UHGV virus genome: UHGV-1550212
Length of the DNA: 64,000 bases
Reading direction: 5' to 3' (one strand)
From: a virus
A program made the translations under genes and the position numbers. Of this stretch, positions 19,065 to 62,450 are shown one piece after another (positions within the stretch are counted from its first letter, which is position 1; every line of letters starts with the position of its first letter). A model generated the notes under the pieces. That model did not search any database. It had not been told where the DNA came from and saw only the letters and a program-made list of their open reading frames with translations.

Positions 19065-20123
19065 TTATGAACGTCTTGTTAACAATGCATGACCACAATC
19101 ATAAACTGCAACATAGCCAGTGTTAAGCATCTCTTGCTCATCTTGGCCGGCGTCTACAATATGTTCTTTGCTGTTAAGTTTGACCCAGTGCTTGCAGATT
19201 GTTGATTTATCATCTGACAATTTAGGGTTAATGCAGAAGTCTGTTGAGTTTATTGTGTTGTCGAGATGTTGTTTGATGACATCGACAACTTGCTCTGGTG
19301 TCATCCAATCAAACACTGTTATGCAAGTGTAGCCATATTTGAGAGCAAGTTGAGCTTTGTTGAAGTGATAGTCGAATGGAATTGGATGATTGTGTTTTGA
19401 TTTGCCAATTGCATATGCATAGCCATATGTAGAGTTGTGACTGATTGTTGGGCAAATTTCAATCAGCAAATGCTTATAATGCAGGTCATATGACTGGCGT
19501 TCAATATTGACGTCATCACAGTCAAATGCAAGCCCAAGTTCTTGTAACAGCAAAGTTTGCCATCGTTTGTTTGTAGCTGATATGACATTTTTGTGAGCAT
19601 TGCGACATTTTTGATGCATACAAAAGAATGGGACACCATATTTTTGCTGCATCAATTTAGTGTCAATGCCTGCTGCATTGCCATAACGTTCAAGCTTCGT
19701 TGCTCTAATTTTGTCAGCATCACCCCAAATGTTGCCATATCGTTTGCGCTTTGTGTCTTGAGACTTCTTAATGTTGCCACTGCGGTTGCCATAAATAAGT
19801 TCCTTTGATTGACACGCATGTTCAGCAGCATCTGGCCCATATATGTGACCGTATTTTTGAAGCTTAATTTCATTGATACGTTCTACTGGGCCATTTGGAT
19901 GACCATAGCGTTCTTGTTTGATGCGTTTTGTGTGCTCAATTGTTGACTTTAATGCAAGCTTTGACGTGACGCCAAATTTGCGCAAACAGCCTATTCTAAT
20001 ATTGAAACTACGTTTAATATGTGATGCTTCTATTTTTGTAACAGCCAATTGCAATGCATCATCACGTTCAGTTTCAAGCATGCAAATTTGTTCATCAATT
20101 GTCATAGCATCAAACCATTTCAT
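19065..20123 (-). CDS. homing-endonuclease-like protein, paralogue 1 (tandem R/K-YG repeats plus C-terminal putative nuclease domain)
   Basis: 352 aa, ATG confirmed. Five repeats of the type K.ERYGHPNGP / KLQKYGHIYGP / RKRYGNIWGD / LERYGNAAG / QQKYGVP, then a conserved C-terminal block (YDLHYKHLLIEICPTISHNS ... VYDCGH) shared with 35290..36585 and 48845..49876; free-standing between conserved genes. Confidence 0.4.
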   Translation of the reverse strand: MKWFDAMTIDEQICMLETERDDALQLAVTKIEASHIKRSFNIRIGCLRKFGVTSKLALKSTIEHTKRIKQERYGHPNGPVERINEIKLQKYGHIYGPDAAEHACQSKELIYGNRSGNIKKSQDTKRKRYGNIWGDADKIRATKLERYGNAAGIDTKLMQQKYGVPFFCMHQKCRNAHKNVISATNKRWQTLLLQELGLAFDCDDVNIERQSYDLHYKHLLIEICPTISHNSTYGYAYAIGKSKHNHPIPFDYHFNKAQLALKYGYTCITVFDWMTPEQVVDVIKQHLDNTINSTDFCINPKLSDDKSTICKHWVKLNSKEHIVDAGQDEQEMLNTGYVAVYDCGHALLTRRS

Positions 20124-36585: not shown

Positions 36586-36652
36586 TGTGCATGAATGTTC
36601 AATATGTAAATTCACTATATGTACATATAACACGAATATTCAAGTTAGATGC

Positions 36653-45213: not shown

Positions 45214-46557
45214 TCAGAATTGAAACATGTTGTTGATAAACGTATCGCCAAACTGCGCATCTGCAGCTTTTGACGTTATGTCATACGTTGCTGCATTGAT
45301 GCCGAGTGCAGTTATTGTTGATTGCGCATCTACAAGTTCATACACTTTGCAGCTTGGCTTTGTAATGTCTGTAAACGACATTGTGTACATGAAGTTTTCA
45401 AAGATATGTCTTGGTACTTCACGTGCATTCAAACATGCAAGTTGTCTATTTTCTGCAAATCGCGCCTTGAGCCATTCAAAGTCATCTGCAGGTACTGAGT
45501 CAACATTCATGAATGTCTTATATGCTGCAGTCAAAAACATTGCAATGACTTCGTCATCATACAAATCTTCACCAAGCATATATCGCATGCCAGGTTCCAA
45601 CTGTTTTGCATTGTCAGTTTCAATACCAAGAGACTTCAATGCATCGTAGATTTGGCCTACAGATAAATGCGACCAATTGTTGCCACGTTTCTTGAGCTTG
45701 CCAAACAATTCTGGGATGTTGTCACCAGCATCACCAAGCACAATCTTGTAAAACAAGAAACTTGGCACATGTTCATGAATCTCTGCATCAACATACTCAA
45801 GCAATGCTGCATATGGGTTGTCAAGAATGCGTGTTTTAACTTGAGCACCAGCAAAGCTGTCGAAGATGCTGCCGCCGACATTCTGCGACTTTTCACCAGC
45901 AAGTTCTTTGATGTGTTCAAGCACAAACTTGTCGCCCATCAGTACTCGAGACTTCTGCCACCCATTTGCTTTGCAGCCATTTTTGATGATTGCATATGCT
46001 GAACATGCGCCAGTGTATGTGTCAACACAAACACATTGAGTCAAGTCTTTGTCAGTGCCTTGATACAACACATTGCGGCCTTTTGACGTTGCATATCTGC
46101 TAAGCATGAAGATGACATCATCAGCTTCTGCTTCAGAAAGCTTAATGTGACGAATGCCATGCACTTCTTGCATCAACTTCAACCAGTCAAAGTATACACC
46201 ATAAACTTTGAGCCAGTTGATTGTCTGGTCATATGTTCGAGTGCCTTTGTAACCAGCATCTTCACCTTGTTCAAAGCCCTCTCTTGTCAAGTATTGATGC
46301 TTTGAGCGCCACAAATTCGACTTTTTGTCATCGACCGCAATGATGACATCATCAACAACATCTTCAAGTCTACGAAGCTCATTACAAAGGTCGAGCGTTA
46401 ACTTGGATATCAAAGACAGTCTTGATGCATTCTCATTCTTTTCGAATGACAAGTCTGTGCCTGATTTTGCTAATACTGGCACTCTGCTCTTCAACCACCA
46501 GCTTCCATCAATTACGTAGATGAACTTGTGATTATGAGTATTGTCAAGCTTTGTCAT
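45214..46557 (-). CDS. 5'-3' exonuclease / flap endonuclease (T4 RNase H-like)
   Basis: 447 aa, ATG confirmed. FIYVIDGSWW (N-terminal metal-site I.D motif), VIIAVDDKKS, LSEAEADDVIFML and GTDKDLTQCV match the FEN/T4 rnh acidic motifs. Confidence 0.55.
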   Translation of the reverse strand: MTKLDNTHNHKFIYVIDGSWWLKSRVPVLAKSGTDLSFEKNENASRLSLISKLTLDLCNELRRLEDVVDDVIIAVDDKKSNLWRSKHQYLTREGFEQGEDAGYKGTRTYDQTINWLKVYGVYFDWLKLMQEVHGIRHIKLSEAEADDVIFMLSRYATSKGRNVLYQGTDKDLTQCVCVDTYTGACSAYAIIKNGCKANGWQKSRVLMGDKFVLEHIKELAGEKSQNVGGSIFDSFAGAQVKTRILDNPYAALLEYVDAEIHEHVPSFLFYKIVLGDAGDNIPELFGKLKKRGNNWSHLSVGQIYDALKSLGIETDNAKQLEPGMRYMLGEDLYDDEVIAMFLTAAYKTFMNVDSVPADDFEWLKARFAENRQLACLNAREVPRHIFENFMYTMSFTDITKPSCKVYELVDAQSTITALGINAATYDITSKAADAQFGDTFINNMFQF

Positions 46558-46805
46558 TGTCTGAATGCTTTTGCAATTGCTGATGTTGAGAGCATTGGCA
46601 CACTACCATTTTTGAAGCGAGGCTTTTTGTTTGACAACGACCACTTTTGCTTATGCCACTTTGAGCAGTTTGTGCCACGATTTGTTACATCTGCGCCGGA
46701 CCTTGAGCACTTGAGTCGGAAATCTTGTGCAGATGTGCAGTGCTTCTTTATTGAATGCTGACAATTATAGCAGCATTTATCTTGTGGTGTCACTGGATAT
46801 CTCAT
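46554..46805 (-). CDS. small basic Cys-rich protein (putative)
   Basis: Track ORF 46554..46913 overlaps the upstream gene; an internal ATG at 46805 gives an 83-aa basic protein with CCYNC ... C ... C. Confidence 0.3.
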   Translation of the reverse strand: MRYPVTPQDKCCYNCQHSIKKHCTSAQDFRLKCSRSGADVTNRGTNCSKWHKQKWSLSNKKPRFKNGSVPMLSTSAIAKAFRQ

Positions 46806-46806
46806 G

Positions 46807-47274
46807 TCATTCAATGATAAGCGTATGACCAACTTCTTTCGCAAATGACACAATGCAGCCAAACAATTGCGGGTCACACCAAGGCTTGATGAACTGCTGC
46901 CACCAGTGAACATCAGATGACACCATCATTTCTTTGACAAGGTCTTCCTTTTCCCTGTCAAGATATGCAATATCACCCAATGCAAACATTGACTTCAAGA
47001 TGTTATCATCACTCATGTCAAACTTGCCAAGCCCTTGTTCGTCAACTTTTCGTGCAACTTTTATTGCATCAGGCAGCTTGCATGCCCCATTTGCGCATAA
47101 ACATGCTGCAAGAATTACAAATGCAGGCTTCTTATCCTGTGCAAGTCTGTATGCCCAATTGCGTGTTGCAGGAAAGTTTGGTACCCTGATGTCTACACCT
47201 TGAGGCAGATTTGATTCTTTAACTGCTTTGAGCTTGGCATCACTGCCAACCATGCCCATCTTTATTTGTGTCAT
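46807..47274 (-). CDS. hypothetical protein
   Basis: 155-aa ORF, ATG confirmed. Confidence 0.45.
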   Translation of the reverse strand: MTQIKMGMVGSDAKLKAVKESNLPQGVDIRVPNFPATRNWAYRLAQDKKPAFVILAACLCANGACKLPDAIKVARKVDEQGLGKFDMSDDNILKSMFALGDIAYLDREKEDLVKEMMVSSDVHWWQQFIKPWCDPQLFGCIVSFAKEVGHTLIIE

Positions 47275-47401
47275 ATATCAATCTTGGTCAAGAAATTGTT
47301 CTTCGTCATTTGACTGTTTCTTTGTCGACTCATCGACATTGTCTGCATCAAGCCATTTGTCATCTTGCTTGACTGTTCCAGTATCTGGTGCGTTCATATT
47401 G

Positions 47402-47797
47402 TCATCGGTTCTTTGAAAATGAAACTTGTGTTGATTGCTGTGGTCGTATATCGACAAACACTGAATCTACTGCGTCAAACTTAAGTGTCGCAAGTGAATC
47501 AATTGTCTGTCTTGCTTTTTGCAACTTGCGTGCTTTGATGCCTGATACTGTTGCAGACTTTTCAAGCAGATATGCATCACGAGGCGTCCAGTAACGAGCT
47601 TGCCAACGCATATGCATAGAGTCAACAATCAGATTTTCTGCTGCAGCGTCAATAATTGCCGCAGTTGATTGCTGAGTTGCATCAAGTCGTTGCTGCAACA
47701 CTGCTAATTGTTTTGTGTGCTGTTGCTGATGTTTGAATACTATGCTGATTGCTCCAAATAAGAGAAACCATGCAATAAACTGCAAAAATGACTTCAT
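47402..47797 (-). CDS. hypothetical membrane-anchored protein
   Basis: 131 aa, ATG confirmed; N-terminal hydrophobic segment FLQFIAWFLLFGAISIVF. Confidence 0.4.
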   Translation of the reverse strand: MKSFLQFIAWFLLFGAISIVFKHQQQHTKQLAVLQQRLDATQQSTAAIIDAAAENLIVDSMHMRWQARYWTPRDAYLLEKSATVSGIKARKLQKARQTIDSLATLKFDAVDSVFVDIRPQQSTQVSFSKNR

Positions 47798-48768
47798 GAT
47801 TGCTGCACGAATTTTGAGAGCTCGAATGATAATGCGAGCATTGTTATGAATTGGTCAATTGATTGTTTCGACTCTACACCGTATTTGTGAGCTGCAATGA
47901 CAATGTCTCCAAGTCGTGCAACAAAACCGGGTGTGTTCTTTGAGAGCTTTGCATAGCACCAATTTGCAAAGTCAGTTGAGAGAGCATTGATGACTTCGGT
48001 TTCACGACCTTTGTATTGTGACAGTGTTTTGTAAAATTCACGTGGGTCTTTGCATGCAACAATGAAATCATACAGTTCTTCAAACTTTGCTGACATGCCC
48101 TTTGTGACATGCTCAAGCGTTATATGACGCTCGCCTTGATTGAAGACAAAGTAGCAAATGTTCAGAATTTTGCGGAAGTCTGGGTAGTTATCTTGAATTA
48201 GCTTGATGAGCGCTTCTTTTTCAATTGTGCATTCATTTTCCTTCAAGATATTGTAGACGCGAACCATGCATTTCTTCATCAACTGTTCTGCGACATCATC
48301 AGAAAAGTCGAATGATAGCATTTTGAGACGAGATTGAGCAATTGATGCATCAATGCGGTCTGGATAGTTGCAAGTTGCAATGAAAAACGCGATGCCTGCA
48401 AACTCTTCAATGGTGCCTCTTAAAGCCATCTGACTTTGCACAGATAAAAAATCCATTTCATCAAGCAGCACAACCTTTACGCCACTTGACGACAATGACA
48501 TATGCTGACAGAATTCTGAAATTGTGTTGCGAACTGTGTCAATGCCAGAATTCTTTGAGCAGTTAATTTGCAAAATTGAACGCCTATCAGTCCACTTCAA
48601 TGCCAATGCTCTTGCTGCGGTTGTTTTTCCACTTCCTGGTGCTCCTGCGAACAAATAATTTTGCGGCTGACCATTAAATGCTGCAGCATAATCATCAGGC
48701 ACAATTAACTCTTCGACTTTTGTTGGCCTGTAGCGTTCTAACCAAGTTTTATCTTTAAGGGATGCCAT
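47794..48768 (-). CDS. sliding-clamp loader ATPase (T4 gp44-like AAA+)
   Basis: Track start 48801 is TTG; ATG at 48766-48768 used. WLERYRPTKVEELIVP, FAGAPGSGKTT (Walker A), VVLLDEMD (Walker B) and NYPDFRKIL parallel T4 gp44 (KYRPSTIDECILP, SPGTGKTT, VIVIDEFD, NFPDFRKTI). Confidence 0.75.
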   Translation of the reverse strand: MASLKDKTWLERYRPTKVEELIVPDDYAAAFNGQPQNYLFAGAPGSGKTTAARALALKWTDRRSILQINCSKNSGIDTVRNTISEFCQHMSLSSSGVKVVLLDEMDFLSVQSQMALRGTIEEFAGIAFFIATCNYPDRIDASIAQSRLKMLSFDFSDDVAEQLMKKCMVRVYNILKENECTIEKEALIKLIQDNYPDFRKILNICYFVFNQGERHITLEHVTKGMSAKFEELYDFIVACKDPREFYKTLSQYKGRETEVINALSTDFANWCYAKLSKNTPGFVARLGDIVIAAHKYGVESKQSIDQFITMLALSFELSKFVQQS

Positions 48769-48775
48769 TTGTTGT

Positions 48776-48844
48776 TTGTTGTGATATGTGATATGATGCA
48801 AAATGCATATTCATATTGTATATGAATATGATACAACAAACGTG
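48776..48844 (-). promoter_or_regulatory. promoter-like region upstream of clamp loader
   Basis: Minus strand: CGTTTGTTGTATCATATTCATATACAATATGAATATGCATTTTGCATCATATCAC; combines the TTGTA+ATAT element with one TGCATTTTGCATC core. Confidence 0.45.
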
Positions 48845-49876
48845 TCAATTTTGCACAGCATGACCGCAATCGTACACAGGCAAAAAGCCTGCGTCAAGCA
48901 TCTCTTGTGTATCTTGTCCACAATCTTTAACATATTGTCGTGTTTTGAAATTATGCCAATGCTTATGAATTGTTGACTTGTCATCTGACAGCTGTGGATT
49001 GAGCGCGAAGTCAGTCGAGTCTACTGGTTCACCTGCAAGATGCTTTCTAATGGCATCAATGACTTCATTGTCATCCATCCATTCGAATATTGTAATGCAA
49101 GTGTAGCCATGCTTGAGAGCAAGCTGAGTTTTGTTGAAGTGATAGTCGAATGCAAGTGGATGATTATGCGTTGATTTGCCCATTGCATATGCAAATCCAT
49201 ATGCTGCATTGTGTGAAAACGTTGGGTTAATTTCAATGAGCAATTTGCAATGTTCATTGCTGTAGTTCAAATCAAATGAAAATCTATGCAATGAAATTTC
49301 ATCATAGCCACAATTGATGCAAAGTTCTTGCTGCAGTTTATCATGCCAATATTTGTTTATCGCTGAAATTGGGCGACCATTTGCATCTCTGCATCTCTTT
49401 GTCATGCAAAACCATGGCACACCATATCGTTGCAGCGTTGTTGCATTGATTTTTTGTTTAGGCCCAAATGCATTGCCATACAAGCGTTGTTTTGTTTCAA
49501 GCATTTTGTTAATGTTGCTTAGAGAGTCACCCCACTTTGCTCGTTTTGTTTCAATTGATTTTGCGACGTTGCCCCATGCATTGCCGTAGCGCTCTAAATT
49601 TGTTTGTCGTTGTTTAGCGACATTGCCCATGCCATTGCCATATTTTGCACGTTTTGATGCAACCATTTTCGCAGCAACATCTTTGCATTGATTGCTATGT
49701 TCTACACCATATTTGTGCAAACATGCTATTTTTCGATTGTACTTTGTTTTAATTGCGCCATGCGATGTTTTACGTGGCGCATATCTCACAAATGGCGTTT
49801 CTGCAAGCAATTTGTCTCTTTCCTCTTCAAGTTCTTTTATGCGAGCTTCAAGAGCTTCTCCTGTCAATTTTTCCAT
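48845..49876 (-). CDS. homing-endonuclease-like protein, paralogue 3
   Basis: 343 aa, ATG confirmed. N-terminus MEKLTGEALEARIKELEEERDKLLAETPFVRYAPRKTSHG nearly identical to paralogue 2; R/K-YG repeats; C-terminal IEINPTFSHNAAYGFAYAMGKS ... VYDCGH. Sits between the helicase terminator and the clamp-loader promoter. Confidence 0.4.
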   Translation of the reverse strand: MEKLTGEALEARIKELEEERDKLLAETPFVRYAPRKTSHGAIKTKYNRKIACLHKYGVEHSNQCKDVAAKMVASKRAKYGNGMGNVAKQRQTNLERYGNAWGNVAKSIETKRAKWGDSLSNINKMLETKQRLYGNAFGPKQKINATTLQRYGVPWFCMTKRCRDANGRPISAINKYWHDKLQQELCINCGYDEISLHRFSFDLNYSNEHCKLLIEINPTFSHNAAYGFAYAMGKSTHNHPLAFDYHFNKTQLALKHGYTCITIFEWMDDNEVIDAIRKHLAGEPVDSTDFALNPQLSDDKSTIHKHWHNFKTRQYVKDCGQDTQEMLDAGFLPVYDCGHAVQN

Positions 49877-49898
49877 ATGTCATTTGTGTAAATGTCAA

Positions 49899-49942
49899 CA
49901 AAAATAGCGCAGCAGTGTAATCTCACGACTAACTGCTGCGCT
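49899..49942 (-). terminator. rho-independent terminator
   Basis: Stem AGCGCAGCAG / CTGCTGCGCT with a 17-nt loop, followed on the minus strand by TATTTTTGTTG; downstream of the helicase gene. Confidence 0.5.
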
Positions 49943-50110
49943 TGAACATTGTGCTATGAAAGAATGACCATCCCAAACACCCAAACAAGCACAAATGTTC
50001 CGACACAAGAAAACGGAAGAACCCGAAAGAAGCGAGGAGCACGCTTTGTTTGTGACTGGATTGTTATCAATGTATGTACTTATAGGGTGTTTGTTCGTGG
50101 GTTCTTGTCA

Positions 50111-53100
50111 TCAAAAGCTTCGATTCATCAGTTCATCAGCAAGTCGTTCAAGTTCAGTAGCAGCTTTTTGTCGCTTGGCTTCTCTTTCTGCTTCAACATC
50201 TGCTTTGCTTACTGGCGATTCCAAGTCTTTTGCAGGTGCATCTTCAATAACAGTCAAATTGCTGTCATCAAACTTGTTGTCAATGTCAACTCGTTTGAAT
50301 GATATGATGCCTGATGACACCTGAGCTTCTGCTTGTTGTTTGTCAAATACAAGGCTGCTAATTGTTGATTGCAGTTTTGTAGATGCCAGCAATCGTTCTG
50401 TGTTATCTGCAAAAATGTCATCAGTAAACAATACATGCAGCATTTGAGCAATCGAATCACGACTTCTGCTGCAGCCACTGTCAAATGCAGGCAACTGCTT
50501 AATTGCATAGATGTCGCCATCATGTACAGTAATTGCATTGAACATGCGTCTTGCAATTGATGCCACCGAATCAAGTACATCTGGTGATTGCGGCGTGTAG
50601 CCTCGTGAATCGAAGTATATGAGTGCAGAGTTCTTAACAATTTGGTCGACTACTTCTGATGCAATTGAGACTGCATCTTTGCTGTTATTGAAGACATCAT
50701 TTAGCATATATGACACAATCTTGATGTTCGACTCATGCATTGTGCCACTTGAACCCGCATCAAATATTGACACTGCATCTTTGATTGATTTGAGTCTTGC
50801 AAGTCGATACATGTCTTTGTTGTCAATGACATACATATCGATAGTCTTCATGATGGTGTCAAACAAGTAATGATGCGATAGTGTTCGCAATGCATGTCGC
50901 CAATCATCAAACACTCGTCTGTCTTCTACAAGATATGTAAGCTTGCCATTTTTCTTGACAAGTTCAAATCTGTCTGATTCTTGAACTTGCTCTGCTGGCA
51001 AATTCATGATAACTTCGAATGTAGCCTGATTGACAAATGATGCAAACATTTTGCCAATCTTGCTGTTCTTTTCTTGACGGTACTCTGCTCGAGCTTCTTT
51101 TGCAGCATTGAGAACTTGAGCAATCATCATGTCATCTGCAACAACATCTTGCACGACTTTGCATTCATAGCCATACGATGACAATGTGTTCTGAATGATG
51201 ACAAGCTGAGTAGCCCATTGTCGCCATTTCTGCTCAAACATATTGAGCTTATACGCAGTCAAGTGAATCTTGATTTCACCTGTGTACGGGTCACGATAAA
51301 AGTACGGTGCATTGAATGCCCATTCAAAGAAATCAAAGAGACTTCTTGAGTCATTGCGCTTTGTCTGCATTTGCAAAATGTCCCAGAATGACAGCTTTTC
51401 AACATTTGTTAATGTCAAGTCAAGCTCGTCATATGCAGTAATGTTTCGTGGGTCGCCATTTGATTTTGTCATACTGAAATACACATATGACTGAATGGAT
51501 ATTTTGCGAAGCCGTGAGTTAAATTGTTCGATTTCTTGACCTGTAAATGCCTCGTCATAAATGACATCAAATTCATAGCTGTCATTGATATCAATGCCAA
51601 CTGACAAGTAATTTGTGCAGAACAGCAGTTCAATATCACCAATTGTGCCAGATTCATTGATTGATTGAACAAAGTCATGCATTGCATTGTCACGCTTGTA
51701 GTACTTGACTTTTGGATTTCTGCCAAGCATCATTCGAACTGCGCCTACAATTGCATGAGTAAATGCGTCGCCTTTGTTTGTTGGGAACAGAATTCGTTTG
51801 CCTGCTTTAATTGCTGTTGAGATATGTGATGCAAGTTTTGTAATCTTGTCGCCGTCATGTTTGCAGCAGACAAATCTGACACCTTTGTTGTAATTAAGCG
51901 GCTTGTCGCAGAATATGACAGTGTCAAAATGACAGAACATGTGTTCAGCTACAGGTGTGCCTGTCATCAAAATGACTTTTGTCTGCAACTTTGTTAAGTT
52001 GTCAATCACATTTGCAGGTACAACATCACGATATGCAGACATTGTCAACAAGTGCGATTCGTCGACGACAACATAGTCATATAAAATTGACACTTCCTCT
52101 GGGTCAGCTAATGTAAATTTATCGAATGTCAAAGCTACATTGACATGCTTAGACAATTCAAGACCTCGTTGACCAAATGAGCAATACATGCCAAGGTCTG
52201 ACATCTCAATCTTTGATTGCAAGATTGATGTGTATGGTTCAATCAGCATGACTCGTTTTCCATCACGAGTAAGCTGCTTGATAAATTCTGTCTTGCCTGA
52301 GCCTGGCCGTGCAATCAAGTAATTGATGCCAGTTACAAATACTTCTTCAAGTTCATGCTTGTATGTTGACAAGTACTCATTTTCTGCAAGTTTGAAGACA
52401 TGCGTATGTCGAAGTTCAAAGTCTTTTTGCTGTGCAACTTTCGACATAATGTACTGACTGATTGCATCTTCTGTATTGTGTTCAGCAATCAGTTCATTGA
52501 CAGTTACAGATGACTTGTTAGCAAACTTGAATTTGAAGCCGTGCTTTTCACGAAGTTCTTTGACAGATGACCATACGCACGGACAAGTGCCTGCTGCATT
52601 ACGTTCAACTGCAGACCTGAATGAGTTTGCCCAGCTGTTATGCTCTGCATTGAACTTTGGATTACCCGAACACATTTGCAAGAACATTTGCAACACATGT
52701 TCATATTGACCACCTGTAGTTGACTTCAAATCATATAGCCATGCAAGTGTATAGGCCAAGCGATATCTACCAGTGTTGTCGTAGTTTTGTGGAGTGATTG
52801 TGAGCATTGTGCCCTCTTCAATCATTGTGATGTCATCACGTTGAGTGAAGACTTGCTCGCCGTCAGTCATTGCAGTCATATGAGACTTCGGCGCATAATC
52901 AAAACGACCTCGAAGTCTATCAAACATTGTCTTCAGTTTGTCGATGCAAAATTTTGCATCAACTGAAGCATAGATGCTAACATCAAACTCTGGTTGCTCA
53001 ATGAATTGCGCGTTTTGATTGATGATGACATCTTTATCACGTGCAACAAACAACGGCTGACTAATTTTGCAAACAGATGCATCAACTACTCGAGATTCAG

Positions 53101-53710
53101 ACATTTGACCTGACTTTTCAAGTCGTCTTGACAATGTATTGTTGACAGGATGCACTTCTCGAGCCATGTCATGATTGCCCTCTGATTCAAGCTGGTCACT
53201 CAGCAACACAAGGCATTTCCAAATGACATACAATTTTGCCTCATATGCATCAAGATATGCTTTCTTTGCTGCAGAAGCATTTTCAGATGACACAAATACA
53301 GCATCTTCAGTTTGAATTGACAGAGGCTTTGAGATTGTGTAGACGTGCAAGCCTGAACCAGAAGTCGACTTAAGCACAGCAACACACCACGGATATTTGC
53401 AAAGCATTGCAGCCAAACGTGGTTTGATGACTTCTACAAGTTCTTTTGAGTGAAAGTCCAAATCGACTGGCTGCAGACCTGACCAAGTCAAGTAGTCATG
53501 AACTTGTTGTTTTGGTCGAGCAAACATTGTCGATTGCGACACAAAGGGACGATGTGCTTTATCTACTGTGTCAAGTGACTCATCATTTGCAACTTTCATG
53601 ATGAGGTCATACAATGAAATTTGTTGCTTATTGACAGTGTCTTCTGTTTTACGAACACTGTCGCCCATCATGAACTTTATGCCACTGAGCAAATCTTTGA
53701 CGTTTGACAT
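50111..53710 (-). CDS. superfamily-2 DNA helicase (large replication/recombination helicase)
   Basis: 1199 aa, ATG confirmed. Walker A ARPGSGKTEF, DExH box VVVDESHLL, motif III-like LMTGTP; long N- and C-terminal extensions of unknown function. Confidence 0.6.
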   Translation of the reverse strand: MSNVKDLLSGIKFMMGDSVRKTEDTVNKQQISLYDLIMKVANDESLDTVDKAHRPFVSQSTMFARPKQQVHDYLTWSGLQPVDLDFHSKELVEVIKPRLAAMLCKYPWCVAVLKSTSGSGLHVYTISKPLSIQTEDAVFVSSENASAAKKAYLDAYEAKLYVIWKCLVLLSDQLESEGNHDMAREVHPVNNTLSRRLEKSGQMSESRVVDASVCKISQPLFVARDKDVIINQNAQFIEQPEFDVSIYASVDAKFCIDKLKTMFDRLRGRFDYAPKSHMTAMTDGEQVFTQRDDITMIEEGTMLTITPQNYDNTGRYRLAYTLAWLYDLKSTTGGQYEHVLQMFLQMCSGNPKFNAEHNSWANSFRSAVERNAAGTCPCVWSSVKELREKHGFKFKFANKSSVTVNELIAEHNTEDAISQYIMSKVAQQKDFELRHTHVFKLAENEYLSTYKHELEEVFVTGINYLIARPGSGKTEFIKQLTRDGKRVMLIEPYTSILQSKIEMSDLGMYCSFGQRGLELSKHVNVALTFDKFTLADPEEVSILYDYVVVDESHLLTMSAYRDVVPANVIDNLTKLQTKVILMTGTPVAEHMFCHFDTVIFCDKPLNYNKGVRFVCCKHDGDKITKLASHISTAIKAGKRILFPTNKGDAFTHAIVGAVRMMLGRNPKVKYYKRDNAMHDFVQSINESGTIGDIELLFCTNYLSVGIDINDSYEFDVIYDEAFTGQEIEQFNSRLRKISIQSYVYFSMTKSNGDPRNITAYDELDLTLTNVEKLSFWDILQMQTKRNDSRSLFDFFEWAFNAPYFYRDPYTGEIKIHLTAYKLNMFEQKWRQWATQLVIIQNTLSSYGYECKVVQDVVADDMMIAQVLNAAKEARAEYRQEKNSKIGKMFASFVNQATFEVIMNLPAEQVQESDRFELVKKNGKLTYLVEDRRVFDDWRHALRTLSHHYLFDTIMKTIDMYVIDNKDMYRLARLKSIKDAVSIFDAGSSGTMHESNIKIVSYMLNDVFNNSKDAVSIASEVVDQIVKNSALIYFDSRGYTPQSPDVLDSVASIARRMFNAITVHDGDIYAIKQLPAFDSGCSRSRDSIAQMLHVLFTDDIFADNTERLLASTKLQSTISSLVFDKQQAEAQVSSGIISFKRVDIDNKFDDSNLTVIEDAPAKDLESPVSKADVEAEREAKRQKAATELERLADELMNRSF

Positions 53711-53740
53711 ATTTTGTTGATGCTTTTTGTTTGGTCAAAA

Positions 53741-53767
53741 TTATATTGAATATGATACAACACTTGT
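53741..53767 (-). promoter_or_regulatory. promoter-like element upstream of helicase gene
   Basis: Minus strand: GTGTTGTATCATATTCAATATAA, 30-55 nt upstream of ATG 53710. Confidence 0.45.
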
Positions 53768-53778
53768 GACATTTTTGC

Positions 53779-54420
53779 TTAGAATGCGACACCGACATGT
53801 GCGCCAATCATAGCAGCTTTTGAGTCAACTTTCTTCATGCAGCCTGCATCAAGACCTATACGCCATTGTAAACTACTCTTACCAAATTGACGAGTGTATG
53901 ATAGCCAATACATGTCAATTGATTGCTTGTTAAATGTGCCAAATGCATAGTGAAAGTCTACATTATTTCGTGGTGCATCATGGTCAATGACTTTGATTGT
54001 CGTAGTTTGCACTTCACGAATAACTGTGTCTGCTTTGAACATCAAAACGTCCCAATCACGTTGCTTGATTGTGTTTTGCGTAATGTAGTCTTTTATTGCT
54101 ATTTGCAGTTTGTCTGACTTCAATGTGTCTGCATACTCATACTGTGCAAAGTAGTCATTAACATACTGCATAAGCTTTGTAGTGTCTATGTCAACTACAA
54201 GAGTCGTGTCACGATACACTGGCACTGGTATTGTCTTGCCAGGCATATGAACTGTGTCGTGTTTAATAACAGTGTCAGCTTTGACAATTGGCTCTGCATT
54301 TATAGCATCTTGATATGTTTGCCAGTCTTTTGGGCTGACAAAATGCCAATCTTTGAAAATCATGACAGCAGTCAATACAATGACTGCTGTCATGACTATG
54401 ATTTTGAGTGTCTTCAACAT
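53779..54420 (-). CDS. hypothetical membrane-anchored protein
   Basis: Track start 54426 is GTG; ATG at 54418-54420. N-terminal transmembrane segment LKIIVMTAVIVLTAVMIF. Confidence 0.45.
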   Translation of the reverse strand: MLKTLKIIVMTAVIVLTAVMIFKDWHFVSPKDWQTYQDAINAEPIVKADTVIKHDTVHMPGKTIPVPVYRDTTLVVDIDTTKLMQYVNDYFAQYEYADTLKSDKLQIAIKDYITQNTIKQRDWDVLMFKADTVIREVQTTTIKVIDHDAPRNNVDFHYAFGTFNKQSIDMYWLSYTRQFGKSSLQWRIGLDAGCMKKVDSKAAMIGAHVGVAF

Positions 54421-54426
54421 ATTCAC

Positions 54427-56022
54427 TTATGCTTTTGCAGTTACAGATGATAAGACAATTCGTTGCAGGAAATTGCCTGCAGTGTCCATAATGTCCCAAG
54501 TAGTACTTGAGCCCTCATTGTTTGACAATGTAAATCTGATGTAATTCGATGTTCTTGTCAATTCATCGCGAATGATATTGTTGCCTGAACGTGCAATGTA
54601 ACTGCCAAATTTTTGCAATGCTATCTGAGCATTGTCTGTGTCAAGCAATGCAATTGATATGTCTACAGAAGAGCCCTTTGGGCAGTTGATTGTCTTGACA
54701 ACGAACAATGATTGAGCATCATCATTTATCACAAGCTTGCTGATAAGCGTAGGCACAGGTCTGTCAATCTGCAAGACTCTATCTACGCCCGCTTTTGCAT
54801 TGCCAATGACTGTCTTTTGATTGATGACTTTATGCACAATGTCATATGATTCAAATTTGACTTGAGGTTTACGATGCCAGCAAAGCATTGCAATGTCATC
54901 TTCAGACAGAATCAATTGCATTGAACGACTTATGCGTACTTGTCCAAGAGTTGACACGTAATCAAGCACAGCAGTAACATACACAAGAGCCATTTTTGGC
55001 TTGTTATCTGGATTGTCATCGTCTACAATGATAGGCGACCATTCAACTGCTTGTGTCGCGTTGTCAACATTTGCAAATTGCATATGTCGTATGCTTGAAT
55101 CTATGAGAACGCCTTCTGCATTGTATGCTTGCAAGATGACGTCATACGTGACATTCGCATCATCAATCAACTCAAGTCTTGAAATCCAATCTGACAGTTG
55201 CATTGTACGATGCTTCATCTGCATTTCAATGCATGCAGGCGCAAATTCGGATTCTTGTCGCAGTACTACATCTGCATACAAAGTCTCATCTTCATTGCCG
55301 GTCAACAGCAATGCTTGTTTGATTTCTCGAAGAGCAAACTGAGTAAATGTTCTGACTGCCCCAGATACAAGTGACTGCTCAAATGAGTAAACTTTGTCAT
55401 CATACACAAGTCCAATCTCAACATTGATATTTGATTGCAATGCTCGTCTTGTAGATGTGCCAAACACGAACTCACGAACTTTAGACATTTCATCACTGTT
55501 CATTGAACACAAGAAGTCAATATCGACAATCTTGAATTCAATTTCAGTAGTGAACTGCTCATTGTCAATGACGACAATCTTGTTTTTGACAGGTGTAAAC
55601 AATGAACGTGCTTTGATGTCAAGCAATGACATCAAACTGTATTTGACATCATCAATGTCAATTGACAGTCTAAGCCAAACGCCAATGACATTTGATGCAT
55701 AACGAAATCCACTGACTGCGTATAATCTGCATGTCAGATATTGCAGTTTGTCAAGCGATGTCGTCTTATATGCCGAATCTGCAAAATTTGCGACAATTGT
55801 GTCTGTGTATGAGTCTGGTGTCAGATATGTCGGCACCTGATATGTAGTGTTTTGTGCAACTGAACTGTATTCACGAACATTGTGTGTTTCTGCACCATCG
55901 GCATTCAATAGATGCACAACACCGCCACTTGCAATCTTATGCAAGGGCACGTCTGTCATGTCGTAGACACTTGAATCACCAATCTCAAGTGCAAAGTCTT
56001 CAGTCAGTCTCAGTCGTTGCAT
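54427..56022 (-). CDS. hypothetical protein
   Basis: 531-aa ORF, ATG confirmed. Confidence 0.5.
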   Translation of the reverse strand: MQRLRLTEDFALEIGDSSVYDMTDVPLHKIASGGVVHLLNADGAETHNVREYSSVAQNTTYQVPTYLTPDSYTDTIVANFADSAYKTTSLDKLQYLTCRLYAVSGFRYASNVIGVWLRLSIDIDDVKYSLMSLLDIKARSLFTPVKNKIVVIDNEQFTTEIEFKIVDIDFLCSMNSDEMSKVREFVFGTSTRRALQSNINVEIGLVYDDKVYSFEQSLVSGAVRTFTQFALREIKQALLLTGNEDETLYADVVLRQESEFAPACIEMQMKHRTMQLSDWISRLELIDDANVTYDVILQAYNAEGVLIDSSIRHMQFANVDNATQAVEWSPIIVDDDNPDNKPKMALVYVTAVLDYVSTLGQVRISRSMQLILSEDDIAMLCWHRKPQVKFESYDIVHKVINQKTVIGNAKAGVDRVLQIDRPVPTLISKLVINDDAQSLFVVKTINCPKGSSVDISIALLDTDNAQIALQKFGSYIARSGNNIIRDELTRTSNYIRFTLSNNEGSSTTWDIMDTAGNFLQRIVLSSVTAKA

Positions 56023-56089
56023 ATTGTCGAAATCTTGTTTGTGTTATATGTACACAAAACTGCACCAGCAATTTTGCTGGTGCAGCTGG

Positions 56090-56347
56090 TTAATTGTTGA
56101 GATACTGCTGAAGCTCAACTTCTGTTGCAAGTCTACATTGCTTAATATTGAACACTGTCATAATATGACAACTCTTGCATTTATGCCAAATTTCAGCAAC
56201 AGCAGTTTGTGTGTTCTTTGGCAATGAGCGTCTGTACTTGACAATGTCTGTAGTGCCGCAGCATTTACATGTGCCAAGCACTACATACAATTTTGAGTTA
56301 GTCGCGCTCAATTGTGACATGTCTAACTTCTGCTTCTTCATAGCCAT
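56090..56347 (-). CDS. small zinc-ribbon protein
   Basis: 85 aa, ATG confirmed; CKCCG ... CKSCH. Confidence 0.4.
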   Translation of the reverse strand: MAMKKQKLDMSQLSATNSKLYVVLGTCKCCGTTDIVKYRRSLPKNTQTAVAEIWHKCKSCHIMTVFNIKQCRLATEVELQQYLNN

Positions 56348-57719
56348 GCTCTCTTAGCTTTTCAATGAGTGCTTCAACATCTGCTCGATAAGTGTCACGA
56401 TTGTCAGAACGTTCAACTACTTTGTACTCTTTCTTAAGTTCTACAATCTTTGCTTTTAGTTTTTTCTGCTCATCTTGAGTCAATCTGCTGACTGCAATTT
56501 CAAGAACTTTGTGATTGATTGAATGCTCATCAAGAATAGACTTGACTTGTTTAGTAGTCATCTTATGCAGTACAATGACTTCGTCAAGCACAAGTTGAAT
56601 GAACTTCATGATGTCTTCATACCACTGAATTGTAGTACGAATGTCTTCAAGTCGTTTTTGCTTGCGAATTTCATAGAATTGCAAACGCCACTCGACAAAT
56701 CGCATAATGAGTGAACCGACTGTTTTGTATCGACGAATCTTGTCATCGAAGTCAATGACAGTCAAGTTGTCACGTTCAATTCTGCAGAACATTGCAAGAG
56801 TCCAGTACAATGAGTCTTTTGCAAGCAACTCAACAAGTTTTGCTTTCGTAAACTTTATCTCATACAGAATCTTGTCTTTGTGAGAGTAATTTGTCCATGC
56901 TTCAATAATGTCACGGTCAAGCAGCATATTGAGATGGTTTTCATAGCCATCGAATGTGTTATTGTATGGGATTGCAGTTACATTGACTGTAGTGTCATCA
57001 ACAACTTCCATTCGACCATGATGCTCATATACACCATTGACAAGTCGCCATTCTCCTTGCAAGCCTTTGACATACGGCGTAATTTTGCGTTCAGAAATAT
57101 CTTCGCCATCAAGAGCATCAATAACAGCATTGCAAACTTCAATTGGATTACGATTGATAATTGTGCTTGAATAGCCAACCGCGATGCCCATAATTGAGTT
57201 TAGCAAAATTGTGGGCACAATTGGCAGATAAAATTGCGGCTCAACTTCAATGCCCTCTTGCCAACGATTTGTCAGCAACTCATTGTCTTTCATGAGCAAC
57301 TCAAATGCATCTGACAATCGAACAAAGATGTATCGAGGCGCACCTGCATATGGGCTGTAGAATGTACCAAACTGACCCTCACCAATGAAGTATGGAATGT
57401 TCTGCTTAAAGTCCTGAGACATGATTGTGATATTGCCCTCAAGACTTGTCTGGCCGTGTTCGTAACCACCCTCTGCTTTTACATAGCCCGCAAATGCACC
57501 TACAGTTTGCTTAACACCACCTTTAAGACGCTTGAGCGCAACATACATGATTTTTCGTGCAGTAGGCTTAAAGCCATCACGAACATCAGGTATTGCACGT
57601 TCAAATGCAGTGTGTAACGCATACTCTTTATATCGAGTATTCAAAAATTCCGCAATGGAAATTTGAATATCTTGTTCTGTCAATGGTTCTGTGTAAACTT
57701 CTTGTTTTCGTCGTGCCAT
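56298..57719 (-). CDS. DNA topoisomerase II subunit (T4 gp52-like, GyrA N-terminal homologue)
   Basis: Track start 57758 is TTG; ATG at 57719 (MARRKQEVYT) used. ERAIPDVRDGFKPTARKIMYVAL, GQFGTFYSPYAGAPRYIFVRLS and PQFYLPIVPTILLNSIMGIAVGYSS match the GyrA/gp52 breakage-reunion motifs. Confidence 0.8.
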   Translation of the reverse strand: MARRKQEVYTEPLTEQDIQISIAEFLNTRYKEYALHTAFERAIPDVRDGFKPTARKIMYVALKRLKGGVKQTVGAFAGYVKAEGGYEHGQTSLEGNITIMSQDFKQNIPYFIGEGQFGTFYSPYAGAPRYIFVRLSDAFELLMKDNELLTNRWQEGIEVEPQFYLPIVPTILLNSIMGIAVGYSSTIINRNPIEVCNAVIDALDGEDISERKITPYVKGLQGEWRLVNGVYEHHGRMEVVDDTTVNVTAIPYNNTFDGYENHLNMLLDRDIIEAWTNYSHKDKILYEIKFTKAKLVELLAKDSLYWTLAMFCRIERDNLTVIDFDDKIRRYKTVGSLIMRFVEWRLQFYEIRKQKRLEDIRTTIQWYEDIMKFIQLVLDEVIVLHKMTTKQVKSILDEHSINHKVLEIAVSRLTQDEQKKLKAKIVELKKEYKVVERSDNRDTYRADVEALIEKLREHGYEEAEVRHVTIERD

Positions 57720-57740
57720 TGTAGCTAATTTGATTTTATT

Positions 57741-57760
57741 TCCTATATTATTGTACAACG
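57741..57760 (-). promoter_or_regulatory. promoter-like element upstream of topoisomerase gene
   Basis: Minus strand: CGTTGTACAATAATATAGGA; contains the palindromic TTGTACAA core. Confidence 0.4.
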
Positions 57761-57766
57761 ATGTTG

Positions 57767-57940
57767 TTAGATTTGCATCATTTGAATATCTTCAAATCTG
57801 CAAAGCTGCGCAGTAGACTGAATACGGAATACTAAGAATACACCAGAATCAGTGACGCATTTAACAAGTGCATCTTCATTTGTGGGCGTGTACAATACGA
57901 CATCCCAAGGTTCAAGTTGTTTTGCTTCTTCTGCTGTCAT
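57767..57940 (-). CDS. hypothetical small protein (57 aa, not in ORF track)
   Basis: ATG at 57938-57940 (MTAEEAKQLEPWDVVLYTPTNEDALVKCVTDSGVF...), stop at 57767-57769; fills an otherwise uncoded gap. Confidence 0.25.
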   Translation of the reverse strand: MTAEEAKQLEPWDVVLYTPTNEDALVKCVTDSGVFLVFRIQSTAQLCRFEDIQMMQI

Positions 57941-57951
57941 ATGCGTAGTGT

Positions 57952-60701: not shown

Positions 60702-61079
60702 GCAAATATATTTTTGTTTGTATATGTACATAAAAGAGCAAGTTCTCAATGTGGAGAACTTGCTCAGCTGACCTGTTGCCAGGTGAAAGCGTGGTGCAGC
60801 ACCTTGTGCTGCAATGGCTATGCTGCCATCGCCATAACGGGCTGAGCATTGCCCAGCATCATTACACGACCAGCTGCATTAAGCGTACGCTTTGCTTTGT
60901 TGAAAAATTTGCCAGTTATCTGGTATCTGCACATCTATTCAAGCGACCTACTATGCAATCAAATGCCTGTCGAGCCCAATGTTTGAGCAGTTGTTTGTCA
61001 GATGCTCAGCTGACTGCAGTCTTTCTGAGTGTATCAAGTTCAGCGATTCTGCATCTTTGCTAAATGGCAATAGTTCAGG

Positions 61080-61155
61080 TGGACTCGCCGAGAATCGAAC
61101 TCGGGTCTTACATAGCGCATCCTTGACTTGGTCCTGTAAACAGGGTTGTCAACAT
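61080..61155 (-). pseudogene. tRNA-like 3' fragment (T-arm plus acceptor 3' strand only)
   Basis: Minus strand: CCGAG-TTCGATT-CTCGG followed by CGAGTCC-A, but no matching 5' acceptor strand, D-arm or anticodon arm within 80 nt upstream. Confidence 0.3.
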
Positions 61156-61160
61156 GCATT

Positions 61161-61231
61161 GCAATACGACAGGACTCGAACCTGCGACCTCGGATTGGAC
61201 GTCCGCGCTCTTACCGCTGAGCTACGTATTC
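61161..61231 (-). tRNA. tRNA, probably tRNA-Gly (anticodon TCC); Trp (CCA) not excluded
   Basis: Minus strand: GAATACG-TA-GCTC-AGCGGTAA-GAGC-GCGGA-CGTCCAA-TCCGA-GGTC-GCAGG-TTCGAGT-CCTGT-CGTATTG-C. Canonical D- and T-arms; anticodon stem has a G-A pair and position 33 is G, so the register is uncertain. Hand fold. Confidence 0.5.
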
Positions 61232-61321
61232 TTATCAATTGACTGCACTGCAATGCAATCAATCGTGCCAATGATATTTGACGCATAATTGCAGTTATGC
61301 GTAACAATTCAAATGTCATTG

Positions 61322-61394
61322 AGCCAACTGCAGGAGTCGAACCTGTAACCTGCTGATTACAAATCAGCTGCTCTGCCAATTGAGCTAAGTTGGC
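61322..61394 (-). tRNA. tRNA-Thr (anticodon TGT)
   Basis: Minus strand: GCCAACT-TA-GCTC-AATTGGCA-GAGC-A-GCTGA-TTTGTAA-TCAGC-AGGTT-ACAGG-TTCGACT-CCTGC-AGTTGGC-T; perfect 7-bp acceptor and 5-bp anticodon stem. Confidence 0.8.
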
Positions 61395-61476
61395 ATAAAG
61401 TCGTTGGGCCATTGCAACCCAAACCTATCATCTTTGTCTAACCAAAGATGCAAGTGTTCTCTTACACCACGACTTG

Positions 61477-61548
61477 TAGCCGAACTTGGAGTCGAACCAA
61501 GCTTTCGAGAATGAAAATCTCGCGTCCTAACCGATAGACGAAACGGCC
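61477..61548 (-). tRNA. tRNA-Glu (anticodon TTC), acceptor stem imperfect
   Basis: Minus strand: GGCCGTT-TC-GTCT-ATCGGTTA-GGAC-G-CGAGA-TTTTCAT-TCTCG-AAAG-CTTGG-TTCGACT-CCAAG-TTCGGCT-A; D-arm identical in form to E. coli tRNA-Glu, but acceptor pairs 6-67 and 7-66 are T-T. Confidence 0.5.
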
Positions 61549-61635
61549 AAGAGCAGTTCAAGTCTGCAGCATTGAACTGCGGAAACAATGCCTGTACGGG
61601 CAGCAAATTGTGCAGATACAGCGACATTGCAAAAT

Positions 61636-61728
61636 CACACCGAACCAAGTTTGTGGCTCTTCTGTCTCATAAAAACAAGTAATCATTACACTTGGCACCA
61701 ATGATTCTGATGTAAAAATCGGTGTGTT
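61636..61728. ncRNA. structured RNA-like element with 8-bp terminal inverted repeat (not a canonical tRNA)
   Basis: CACACCGA (61636-61643) pairs with TCGGTGTG (61721-61728); internal hairpin CAAGT-AATCATTAC-ACTTG; no T-loop consensus. Lies between tRNA-Glu and tRNA-Ser. Confidence 0.25.
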
Positions 61729-61731
61729 ATG

Positions 61732-61816
61732 CGGAGAGTAAGGGATTCGAACCCCTGGTACGTTGCCGTACAGTGGTTTTCAAGACCACCGCCATCGACC
61801 GCTCGGCCAACTCTCC
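61732..61816 (-). tRNA. tRNA-Ser (anticodon TGA), long variable arm
   Basis: Minus strand: GGAGAGT-TG-GCCG-AGCGGTCGAT-GGC-G-GTGGT-CTTGAAA-ACCAC-TGTACGGCAACGTACC-AGGGG-TTCGAAT-CCCTT-ACTCTCC-G. Confidence 0.8.
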
Positions 61817-62010
61817 ATAAAACATTGCATAAGCATTCTTATCTCTTGATGAGACCAAGTAGCTAATTTGGCAAGTTTGTTATATCTATCGTGACTGTTG
61901 CAGTTTGTTTGTCACTCAATACACAAAACTTTCGAACATTCATTGACAGCACTGCAATATCGCTTTTTAAGCTTAGCCATCAATGTATTTATGCAATGTA
62001 TAACAATTCG

Positions 62011-62092
62011 TAGCCAAACCGGGACTTGAACCCAGACTCCTAATGGAACAACATTTTGAGTGTTGCGTGTCTACCAATTCCACCATTTGGCC
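62011..62092 (-). tRNA. tRNA-Leu (anticodon CAA), long variable arm
   Basis: Minus strand: GGCCAAA-TG-GTG-GAATTGGTAGA-CAC-G-CAACA-CTCAAAA-TGTTG-TTCCATTAGGAGTC-TGGGT-TCAAGTC-CCGG-TTTGGCT-A. Confidence 0.75.
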
Positions 62093-62182
62093 ATTTACAA
62101 ATGCAATCTATTTCACAACTGTTTGCATTTGCATTGTTTAACACTAAAAATATGATTCATCTAATCAAAAACCAGAGAATTG

Positions 62183-62256
62183 TAGGGTAGACAGGACTCA
62201 AACCTGCGACCACGTGGTCCCAAACCACGCATTCTAATCAACTGAACTACTACCCT
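62183..62256 (-). tRNA. tRNA-Pro (anticodon TGG)
   Basis: Minus strand: AGGGTAG-TA-GTTC-AGTTGATTA-GAAT-G-CGTGG-TTTGGGA-CCACG-TGGTC-GCAGG-TTTGAGT-CCTGT-CTACCCT-A; all stems pair. Confidence 0.8.
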
Positions 62257-62262
62257 AAGTAG

Positions 62263-62334
62263 TTGAACCGTCTGGACTCGAACCAGAAATGGCTGAACCA
62301 AAATCAGCTGTGTTACCGATTACACCACGATTCA
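62263..62334 (-). tRNA. tRNA-Gln (anticodon TTG)
   Basis: Minus strand: TGAATCG-TG-GTG-TAATCGGTAA-CAC-A-GCTGA-TTTTGGT-TCAGC-CATT-TCTGG-TTCGAGT-CCAGA-CGGTTCA-A; U1-A72 as in bacterial tRNA-Gln. Confidence 0.75.
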
Positions 62335-62387
62335 ATCAAATGCAAATCTTTGTAAGGCGTTTGCAATCCTGTAATTTGTTTATGTAT

Positions 62388-62428
62388 TTTATAGTGATAT
62401 AATACTACAAACATTTATGATTTGCACC
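62388..62428 (-). promoter_or_regulatory. composite promoter-like element upstream of the tRNA cluster
   Basis: Minus strand: GGTGCAAATCATAAATGTTTGTAGTATTATATCACTATAAAATAC, about 55-95 nt upstream of tRNA-Gln (first tRNA in transcription order). Confidence 0.45.
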
Positions 62429-62450
62429 ATATACTGTAACTTTGTATCAC

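Follow-up and report, generated by a model that had tools for sequence, protein, structure and literature searches.

In this study, two short open reading frames (ORFs) on the minus strand of a 64,000-nt stretch of the uncultured virus genome UHGV-1550212 (hereafter the window) were analyzed, and both merit being kept as genes in the annotation of this phage. The longer one, ORF1, encodes 57 amino acids (aa) and adds a new member, without a Pfam model, to the small beta-barrel phage proteins, a common class; the shorter one, ORF2, encodes a lineage-restricted acidic micro-protein of 39 aa. The observations are probably best explained by two real small genes, the product of ORF1 being a predicted binding barrel and that of ORF2 a predicted disordered peptide carrying short motifs. 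The two ORFs, with the stop codon included in the coordinates, are:

57767..57940, minus strand: ORF1, 57 aa, ATG start; MTAEEAKQLEPWDVVLYTPTNEDALVKCVTDSGVFLVFRIQSTAQLCRFEDIQMMQI
47278..47397, minus strand: ORF2, 39 aa, ATG start; MNAPDTGTVKQDDKWLDADNVDESTKKQSNDEEQFLDQD

Both had been pointed out in an earlier note made from the sequence alone, and their positions, strand and translations were reproduced here, each ORF being started by an ATG. The note had called them unannotated, which holds for a gene track with a 60-aa length threshold and does not hold for public data, since the exact sequences of both proteins occur in IMG, ENA and Logan gene calls as "hypothetical protein". ORF1 takes up 174 nt of a 193-nt gap (57759..57951), and ORF2 takes up 120 nt of a 127-nt gap (47275..47401) with a 4-nt spacer on each side. 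A first-order Markov model trained on the window served as the null; under it, the chance that a gap of the given size holds an equally long ORF started by ATG was p ~0.009 for ORF1 and p ~0.007 for ORF2. Because these values are below 0.01, each ORF exceeds chance before comparative evidence is considered. The note had also named loss of the frames in relatives as the observation that would count against the ORFs. When relatives were compared, both frames were intact, with an excess of synonymous changes in close as well as divergent relatives, and with these two observations the suggestion that the ORFs are worth retaining as candidate genes was borne out. A threshold of 60 aa misses real genes here, including one of 39 aa.

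ORF1 starts 11 nt past the stop codon of a 322-aa gene and ends 8 nt before the first possible start (TTG) of the topoisomerase II subunit A gene, 41 nt before the likely ATG of that gene. Its product contains 9 D/E and 4 K/R residues, with an isoelectric point (pI) of 4.2. A protein search yielded 17 homologous clusters with identities of 68-98%, all of them called genes in metagenome assemblies. Relative to a 95%-identical relative from IMG/VR (L001), ORF1 displayed 9 synonymous and 3 non-synonymous differences, corresponding to a ratio of non-synonymous to synonymous rates (dN/dS, omega) of ~0.08, and indels were observed in both flanks and none inside the ORF. In comparisons with homologues of 68-74% identity (L004, L012, and L013), the proportion of synonymous differences (pS) was 0.57-0.97, a range in which synonymous sites are saturated, and that of non-synonymous differences (pN) was 0.17-0.26. 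The sense frame alone is open in all homologues, the other five frames being interrupted. This substitution pattern indicates that ORF1 is under strong purifying selection, and ORF1 is almost certainly a genuine gene.

ORF2 belongs to the replication module, in the stretch from the clamp-loader gene to the RNase H/5'-3' exonuclease gene. Its ATG lies 4 nt past the stop codon of a 131-aa gene, and 4 nt separate its own stop codon from the ATG of the next gene (155 aa). The upstream gene is:

47402..47797, minus strand: upstream partner gene of ORF2, 131 aa, with an N-terminal hydrophobic (transmembrane-like) helix and a 4-nt overlap with the end of the gp44-like clamp-loader gene

A word-indexed protein search with ORF2 gave a single cluster (P0018) of 27 variants distributed on many contigs. 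In eight close relatives the ATG and the stop codon are kept, and a 17-nt indel is present in some of them directly after the stop codon, never inside the ORF; when all loci were considered, start and stop were kept in 11 of 11. Nine sites vary among the close relatives, and 5 of them are third codon positions, a pattern that is suggestive of a coding sequence though not decisive. A search with the 131-aa neighbour revealed a 59%-identical orthologue (P0055) on contig L015, and in both L015 and L023, a 12-kb contig of the same lineage, the orthologue of the 131-aa gene (139/147 aa) is directly followed by a 43-aa ORF (METTTKNKTANIDDDQWLDADNVNESTSAELEEGDFLPQDSEL). This ORF is 47% identical to ORF2, with identical residues at D12, D13, W15-V21, E23-T25, E32, F35, L36, Q38, and D39, and the comparison of the window with L015 gave a pS of 0.70 and a pN of 0.36. 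On the strength of sequence and gene order, we regard this syntenic 43-aa orthologue as the decisive evidence for ORF2 as a gene. In the divergent lineage a 75-aa gene is inserted between ORF2 and the 155/156-aa gene, and ORF2 still adjoins the 131/139/147-aa gene; because this adjacency survives the insertion downstream, ORF2 is linked to its upstream neighbour, the N-terminal hydrophobic helix of which (FLQFIAWFLLFGAISIVF) is kept in both lineages. ORF2 is thus very probably a genuine gene. When extension of the family was attempted, the ORF2 alignment used as a pattern on IMG/VR, and the 131-aa neighbour used as query on IMG/VR and JGI metagenomes, both led to near-identical contigs alone.

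Three other ways of reading the ORF2 interval were considered and rejected. A 59-aa form of ORF2 started by TTG would overlap the upstream gene, and in L015 a stop codon interrupts the frame 5 codons ahead of the ATG; the start was fixed at the ATG (39 aa) because of this stop. An extension of the 131-aa protein at its C-terminus by frameshifting was discarded, as no slippery heptamer occurs in the overlap, the stop codon switches from TGA to TAA without consequence, and the frame is closed in L015 at the position just given. Finally, an antisense gene was considered for the plus-strand ORF 47228..47416, which shares third codon positions with ORF2, and was rejected for the stop codon that this frame contains in L015.

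The AlphaFold2 (AF2) model of ORF1, predicted with the family alignment, is a five-stranded barrel with a predicted local distance difference test score (pLDDT) of 90, and strands are predicted at residues 14-17, 22-29, 34-38, 44-47, and 52-54. The part of ORF1 that is conserved in the alignments is:

57779..57910, minus strand: ORF1 conserved core, residues 11-54, five beta strands, PWDVVxYxPTxExxLVKxVTxxGVFxxFRIQSTAQLCxxED

SH3-like small beta-barrels are antiparallel, highly curved and five-stranded, with ~50-60 residues, and the model of the 57-aa ORF1 product has this architecture. In Foldseek searches against PDB, the top matches were the TDRD3 Tudor domain, Spt5 KOW, PWWP, and NdhS, with template modelling (TM) scores of 0.6-0.74 and a probability of ~1. 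Against BFVD, a collection of predicted viral structures, the matches were small uncharacterised phage proteins (TM 0.7-0.8, expectation value (E) from 1.6e-3), including proteins of Aeromonas phage 65, the DUF2158 protein of Serratia phage X20, and Gp30.5 of phage TuIa. Judged by this model, ORF1 is an SH3/Tudor/KOW-like small beta-barrel belonging to a family that has no Pfam model. ORF1 had no match in Pfam (E up to 0.1), PHROGs, or NCBIfam, and 24 diverse family members searched against Pfam with E up to 10 had no consistent match, with no Tudor, KOW, SH3, PWWP, DUF2158, or S1 among them.

An exhaustive profile search for ORF1 collected 34 representative clusters, all from uncultured sequences and matching approximately profile positions 4-54; those contigs with family members that were inspected are phage-like. 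The family has the signature PFDxVxYKPTxExGxVKxVxxxGVFVLFRIQSTAxLCKxEDLE, and its domain was found in four arrangements: free, as proteins of 53-69 aa; C-terminal in proteins of 83-185 aa whose N-termini are mutually unrelated; behind hydrophobic, membrane-anchor-like N-terminal segments (P0019, P0048, P0050, and P0052); and in tandem, in one protein of 301 aa. Homologues on L004 (a 293.7-kb contig) and on L012-L014 have neighbours unrelated to any gene of the window, and that on L020 lies within a cluster of small genes. As the homologues sit in unrelated gene contexts, the ORF1 gene or domain moves independently of its neighbours. With tblastn against 50,697 GenBank phage records, ORF1 and the consensus-like member P0020 produced spurious or marginal matches alone (ribose-phosphate pyrophosphokinase and tail lysins of Bacillus phages); the domain is represented by metagenomic sequences alone, with no homologue in those records.

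Compared with known systems, ORF1 resembles the SH3-like barrels (Tudor, KOW, PWWP/Agenet, and NdhS) and the DUF2158-type phage proteins in five-stranded topology and in size, and differs from them in having no detectable sequence kinship (Foldseek E 1.6e-3 to 0.1). It is also acidic, and its FRIQSTAxLC signature has no counterpart in these families as far as they were compared. The phage proteins of 50-95 aa that it matches in structure with a Foldseek probability of ~1, such as E5DS94 of Aeromonas phage 65 and Gp30.5 of the T-even phage TuIa, are likewise tiny and uncharacterised. The Tudor domain is characterised by an aromatic cage that binds methylated Lys/Arg, and in the ORF1 alignment the conserved aromatic residues are W12, Y17, F35, F38, and F49. 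From this fold class and these arrangements, ORF1 would act as a portable binding (adaptor) module, used either free or C-terminal to unrelated parts including membrane anchors, and the near-invariant FRIQSTAxLC segment would contact one conserved macromolecular partner. We give even weight to ORF1 binding in this way and to its not doing so.

The product of ORF2 is acidic, as the earlier note had stated, having a pI of 4.05, a net charge of -8, and 12 D/E and 4 K/R among its 39 residues. Its AF2 prediction, made from a two-sequence input, had a pLDDT of 62.7, a predicted TM score (pTM) of 0.13, and no helix or strand of length. Matches were found neither in Pfam nor in PHROGs or NCBIfam. Conservation is confined to two short motifs:

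47323..47364, minus strand: ORF2 motif 1, residues 12-25, DDxWLDADNVxEST
47281..47304, minus strand: ORF2 motif 2, residues 32-39, EExxFLxQD, acidic/hydrophobic, near the C-terminus

Within motif 1, no change was seen over W15-T25 in 17 sequence variants, and the divergent lineage has a single D-to-N substitution there; the codon alignment of the window with L015 showed 5 third-position synonymous changes and 1 non-synonymous change over these residues. Within motif 2, E32, F35, L36, Q38, and D39 are invariant in five aligned sequences from both lineages, and among the 17 variants E32-D39 is altered once, by D39Y in P0068, which ends in Y. ORF2 accordingly encodes an acidic micro-protein, predicted to be intrinsically disordered, in which two short motifs are conserved. 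In the proposed mode of action, translation of ORF2 would be tightly coupled to that of the membrane-anchored 131-aa protein encoded upstream, and its two short linear motifs, DDxWLDADNVxEST and EExxFLxQD, would dock onto a partner protein; we put this forward tentatively and with some doubt.

Several points weigh against the reading of two small genes with binding products. The window and L002, which form the closest pair, differ at 4 nt in 3 codons of ORF2, and all of these codons change the amino acid (Nei-Gojobori split, 1 synonymous to 3 non-synonymous); since the changed codons are all non-synonymous, the N-terminal and middle parts of ORF2 are under weak constraint. The comparative support for ORF2 comes from essentially two lineages. 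For ORF1, the Foldseek E-values against PDB are modest (0.03 or worse), no sequence profile ties it to any characterised family, and its description as a binding module is drawn from the class of the modelled fold. The observations on ORF2, together with its very short length and the fact that a 39-codon open frame is not rare at 40% G+C, would also fit a conserved non-coding spacer of 127 nt, for example a regulatory RNA, a promoter or a translational-coupling element, that is free of stop codons by chance. Such a spacer is very improbable given the low chance of an ATG-started ORF filling the gap, the retention of start and stop at 11 loci with indels outside the ORF alone, and the frame that stays open at 43 aa in the divergent lineage while the antisense frame gains a stop; moreover, WLDADNVxEST and FLxQD are kept there despite saturation of the synonymous sites (pS 0.70). 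The interval also has no Rfam match, and a consensus scan found inside it no sigma-70-like match of 9/12 and no terminator-like site. If ORF2 is a gene, by analogy its product could be an acidic decoy or competitor of the replisome, with a C-terminal motif mimicking the docking tails of sliding-clamp or SSB partners and thereby regulating the phage replisome or subverting that of the host. T4 gp43, gp55, and gp33 have hydrophobic-acidic C-terminal tails that bind the clamp (PMC2988020), and ORF2 is like them in its conserved acidic end with an F-L pair (EExxFLxQD) and in its predicted disorder, a property of docking tails, and its gene lies near that of the clamp loader and before the RNase H/5'-3' exonuclease gene. 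Unlike those tails, ORF2 is a free peptide and not the end of a larger protein. The motif is not strictly terminal, as the divergent lineage adds SEL after it; the C-terminus of no window protein resembles the ORF2 motifs, and the RNase H homologue ends in FINNMFQF, which is another pattern. A decoy of this kind would leave the more strongly conserved internal WLDADNVxEST unexplained, and the synteny of ORF2 ties it to the membrane-anchored 131-aa protein rather than to a clamp, for which no gene was identified in this analysis; we regard it as quite improbable.

For the product of ORF1, the alternative to a protein-protein adaptor is a nucleic-acid- or ribosome-binding mini-domain of S1/KOW kin. 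The sole matches below 0.01 in the profile search against PDB sequences were the Rrp5 S1 repeats (E 0.003, per-domain E 0.25), which share G-x-V-K-x-V-x-D-x-G-x-F-V with ORF1 over strands 2-3, and the structural matches included Spt5 KOW, a PWWP domain with ssDNA and an Hfq entry. S1 domains, which have the OB fold, comprise ~70 residues, whereas the ORF1 domain has ~48, and the Rrp5 match is marginal, covering a 16-residue motif alone; Pfam S1 and KOW matched none of the 24 family members at E up to 10, and no match to a whole OB-fold profile was obtained. With a pI of 4.2, which is unusual in a nucleic-acid binder, and with several homologues fused to membrane anchors, a role of this type is unlikely for ORF1. 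The earlier note had suggested host takeover or anti-defence, and one or both ORFs might encode such a factor (a DNA mimic, an anti-restriction protein or an anti-CRISPR-like protein). Phage small proteins act in phage-host interactions (PMC11323111), and both products resemble Ocr, ArdA, and Arn in small size and negative charge; ORF1 homologues, moreover, occur in small-gene clusters and shift between unrelated contexts, as is typical of accessory genes of the counter-defence type. Acidity alone, however, is not diagnostic of an anti-defence role. Neither ORF matched Ocr, ArdA, or Arn in sequence, and the PHROGs, Pfam, and NCBIfam searches were negative for both, including the anti-restriction families of PHROGs. 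The DNA mimics characterised so far are folded, and their acidic residues form ordered arrays. ORF2 is several-fold shorter than Ocr, ArdA, and Arn, is predicted to be unfolded, and has a fixed place in the core replication operon, not in one of the variable regions that hold accessory genes. The ORF1 barrel is compact, of a generic binding class, and has 9 acidic residues, which is not suggestive of a mimic; a folded carboxylate array was seen in neither product. A host-takeover or anti-defence role appears improbable, and two small genes encoding a binding barrel and a disordered motif peptide remain the preferred reading. A bolder extension of it is that ORF2 might be a free "tail-only" decoy, the two motifs of which dock onto a replisome or membrane-associated partner in the manner of SSB or clamp-ligand tails, and/or that large uncultured phages might use the "RIQSTA" barrel of ORF1 as a new portable targeting domain, fused to diverse effectors and directing them to one conserved host target. 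The chance of this being correct is slim; if true, the ORF2 peptide would be a minimal factor with which the phage regulates or hijacks replication.

The pool of phage small proteins of unassigned function is very large (PMC11323111). ORF1 and ORF2 are two additions to this pool, which is ordinary for a large phage and leaves the current understanding unchanged. ORF1 represents a compact, confidently folded domain family that is absent from Pfam and is re-used at C-termini, and it could become a family model. ORF2 shows cleanly how conservation in a micro-protein can be confined to two short motifs, and it is tractable for peptide pull-downs.

Both ORFs belong to an uncultured phage with a genome of ~176 kb: a 176,073-nt contig in public assemblies carries the exact ORF1 and ORF2 proteins, and the IMG/VR contig IMGVR_UViG_3300045988_149023 (175.6 kb) is ~95% identical to the window. 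In a blastn search with the window DNA, no match was obtained in the 50,697 GenBank phage records, and nothing around ORF1 or ORF2. The nearest cultured relatives infect Flavobacteriia; the topoisomerase II-A of Chryseobacterium phage MA9V-1 has 38.6% identity, and the clamp loader of Tenacibaculum phage PTm1 has 36% identity, to those of the window. No Shine-Dalgarno motif was found in the 33 confident genes of the window (0/33), and the leaders are A-rich and G-poor; those of ORF1 and ORF2 are A/C-rich and G-poor, like those of other window genes. A lack of Shine-Dalgarno motifs with A-rich, G-poor leaders fits a Bacteroidota-type host, and because of these two features and the nearest cultured relatives, the host of this phage is most likely of the Bacteroidota type.

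The replication module is T4-like, and the genes around both ORFs are densely packed and all on the minus strand. In MA9V-1 and PTm1 the gene order downstream of the clamp loader differs, so synteny with these phages is uninformative. Rfam and tRNA scans detected no Rfam family and no tRNA in the gaps occupied by the two ORFs, and no paralogues of either were found within the window. The 322-aa neighbour of ORF1 and the 131-aa and 155-aa neighbours of ORF2 have no match in Pfam, PHROGs, or NCBIfam.

According to the earlier note, the replication module has no coding gaps other than these two. This was not the case, as a 234-nt gap (49877..50110) is present inside the same span (47278-57940) when the same 60-aa threshold is applied. 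Located between genes of 1199 aa and 343 aa, it contains no ATG-started ORF and is a true non-coding gap. A hairpin at approximately 49903..49942 on the minus strand (GCGCAGCAGU...ACUGCUGCGC, -25.3 kcal/mol, z = -4.1) is followed by a U-run (UAUUUUUGUUG), and together they look like an intrinsic terminator. Other gaps, at 60750..61148 and 61649..62450, are largely occupied by a tRNA array.

Outside that span, an 83-aa Cys-rich ORF (46554..46805, minus strand; CxxC...C...C, zinc-ribbon-like) fills the 249-nt interval 46558..46806, which separates the 155-aa gene from the RNase H/5'-3' exonuclease gene. It starts 1 nt past the stop codon of the former, and its own stop codon overlaps the ATG of the latter. 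The ORF is 89-94% conserved in L002, L006, and L007, though uncalled by the gene callers of those assemblies; an orthologue of 56-58 aa is present in L015 and L023, and in L008 the match is split over two frames. No match was found in Pfam, PHROGs, or NCBIfam. Inside this ORF, upstream of the RNase H gene, lies the best sigma-70-like promoter match of the region (46764..46793, minus strand; GTGACA, 18-nt spacer, TG-TATAAT, 11/12); the match may be due to chance. Another Cys-rich ORF, of 85 aa (56090..56347, minus strand; CKCCG...CKSC), shares 50 nt with the 3' end of the topoisomerase II-A gene and has no family match in Pfam or PHROGs.

Three paralogous genes (19065..20123, 35290..36633, and 48845..49876, all on the minus strand) were identified with mutual identities of 32-43%. 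They share repeated "...RYGN..G..." units and a C-terminal G(F/Y)xxVYDCG motif, and one of them has a weak DUF7487 match. In L002 and L006 a diverged 396-aa version stands in place of the copy beside the clamp loader, and this copy is missing from the divergent lineage L023. Its replacement and absence point to a gene family that is mobile and homing-endonuclease-like.

The tRNA array mentioned above comprises seven tRNAs at 61161..62334 on the minus strand (Gly-TCC, Thr-TGT, Glu-TTC, Ser-TGA, Leu-CAA, Pro-TGG, and Gln-TTG), on which ARAGORN and Rfam agree. Beside it, ARAGORN made a "tmRNA*" call of 443 nt (60727..61169, minus strand), which is without Rfam support at the gathering score. The RNase H/5'-3' exonuclease homologue is encoded at 45214..46557 on the minus strand, and its C-terminus, FINNMFQF, may be a clamp-binding tail. 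The sole long ORF on the plus strand (36425..38644, 739 aa) ends in SSDDDDDDWI, an acidic tail resembling the tip of SSB.

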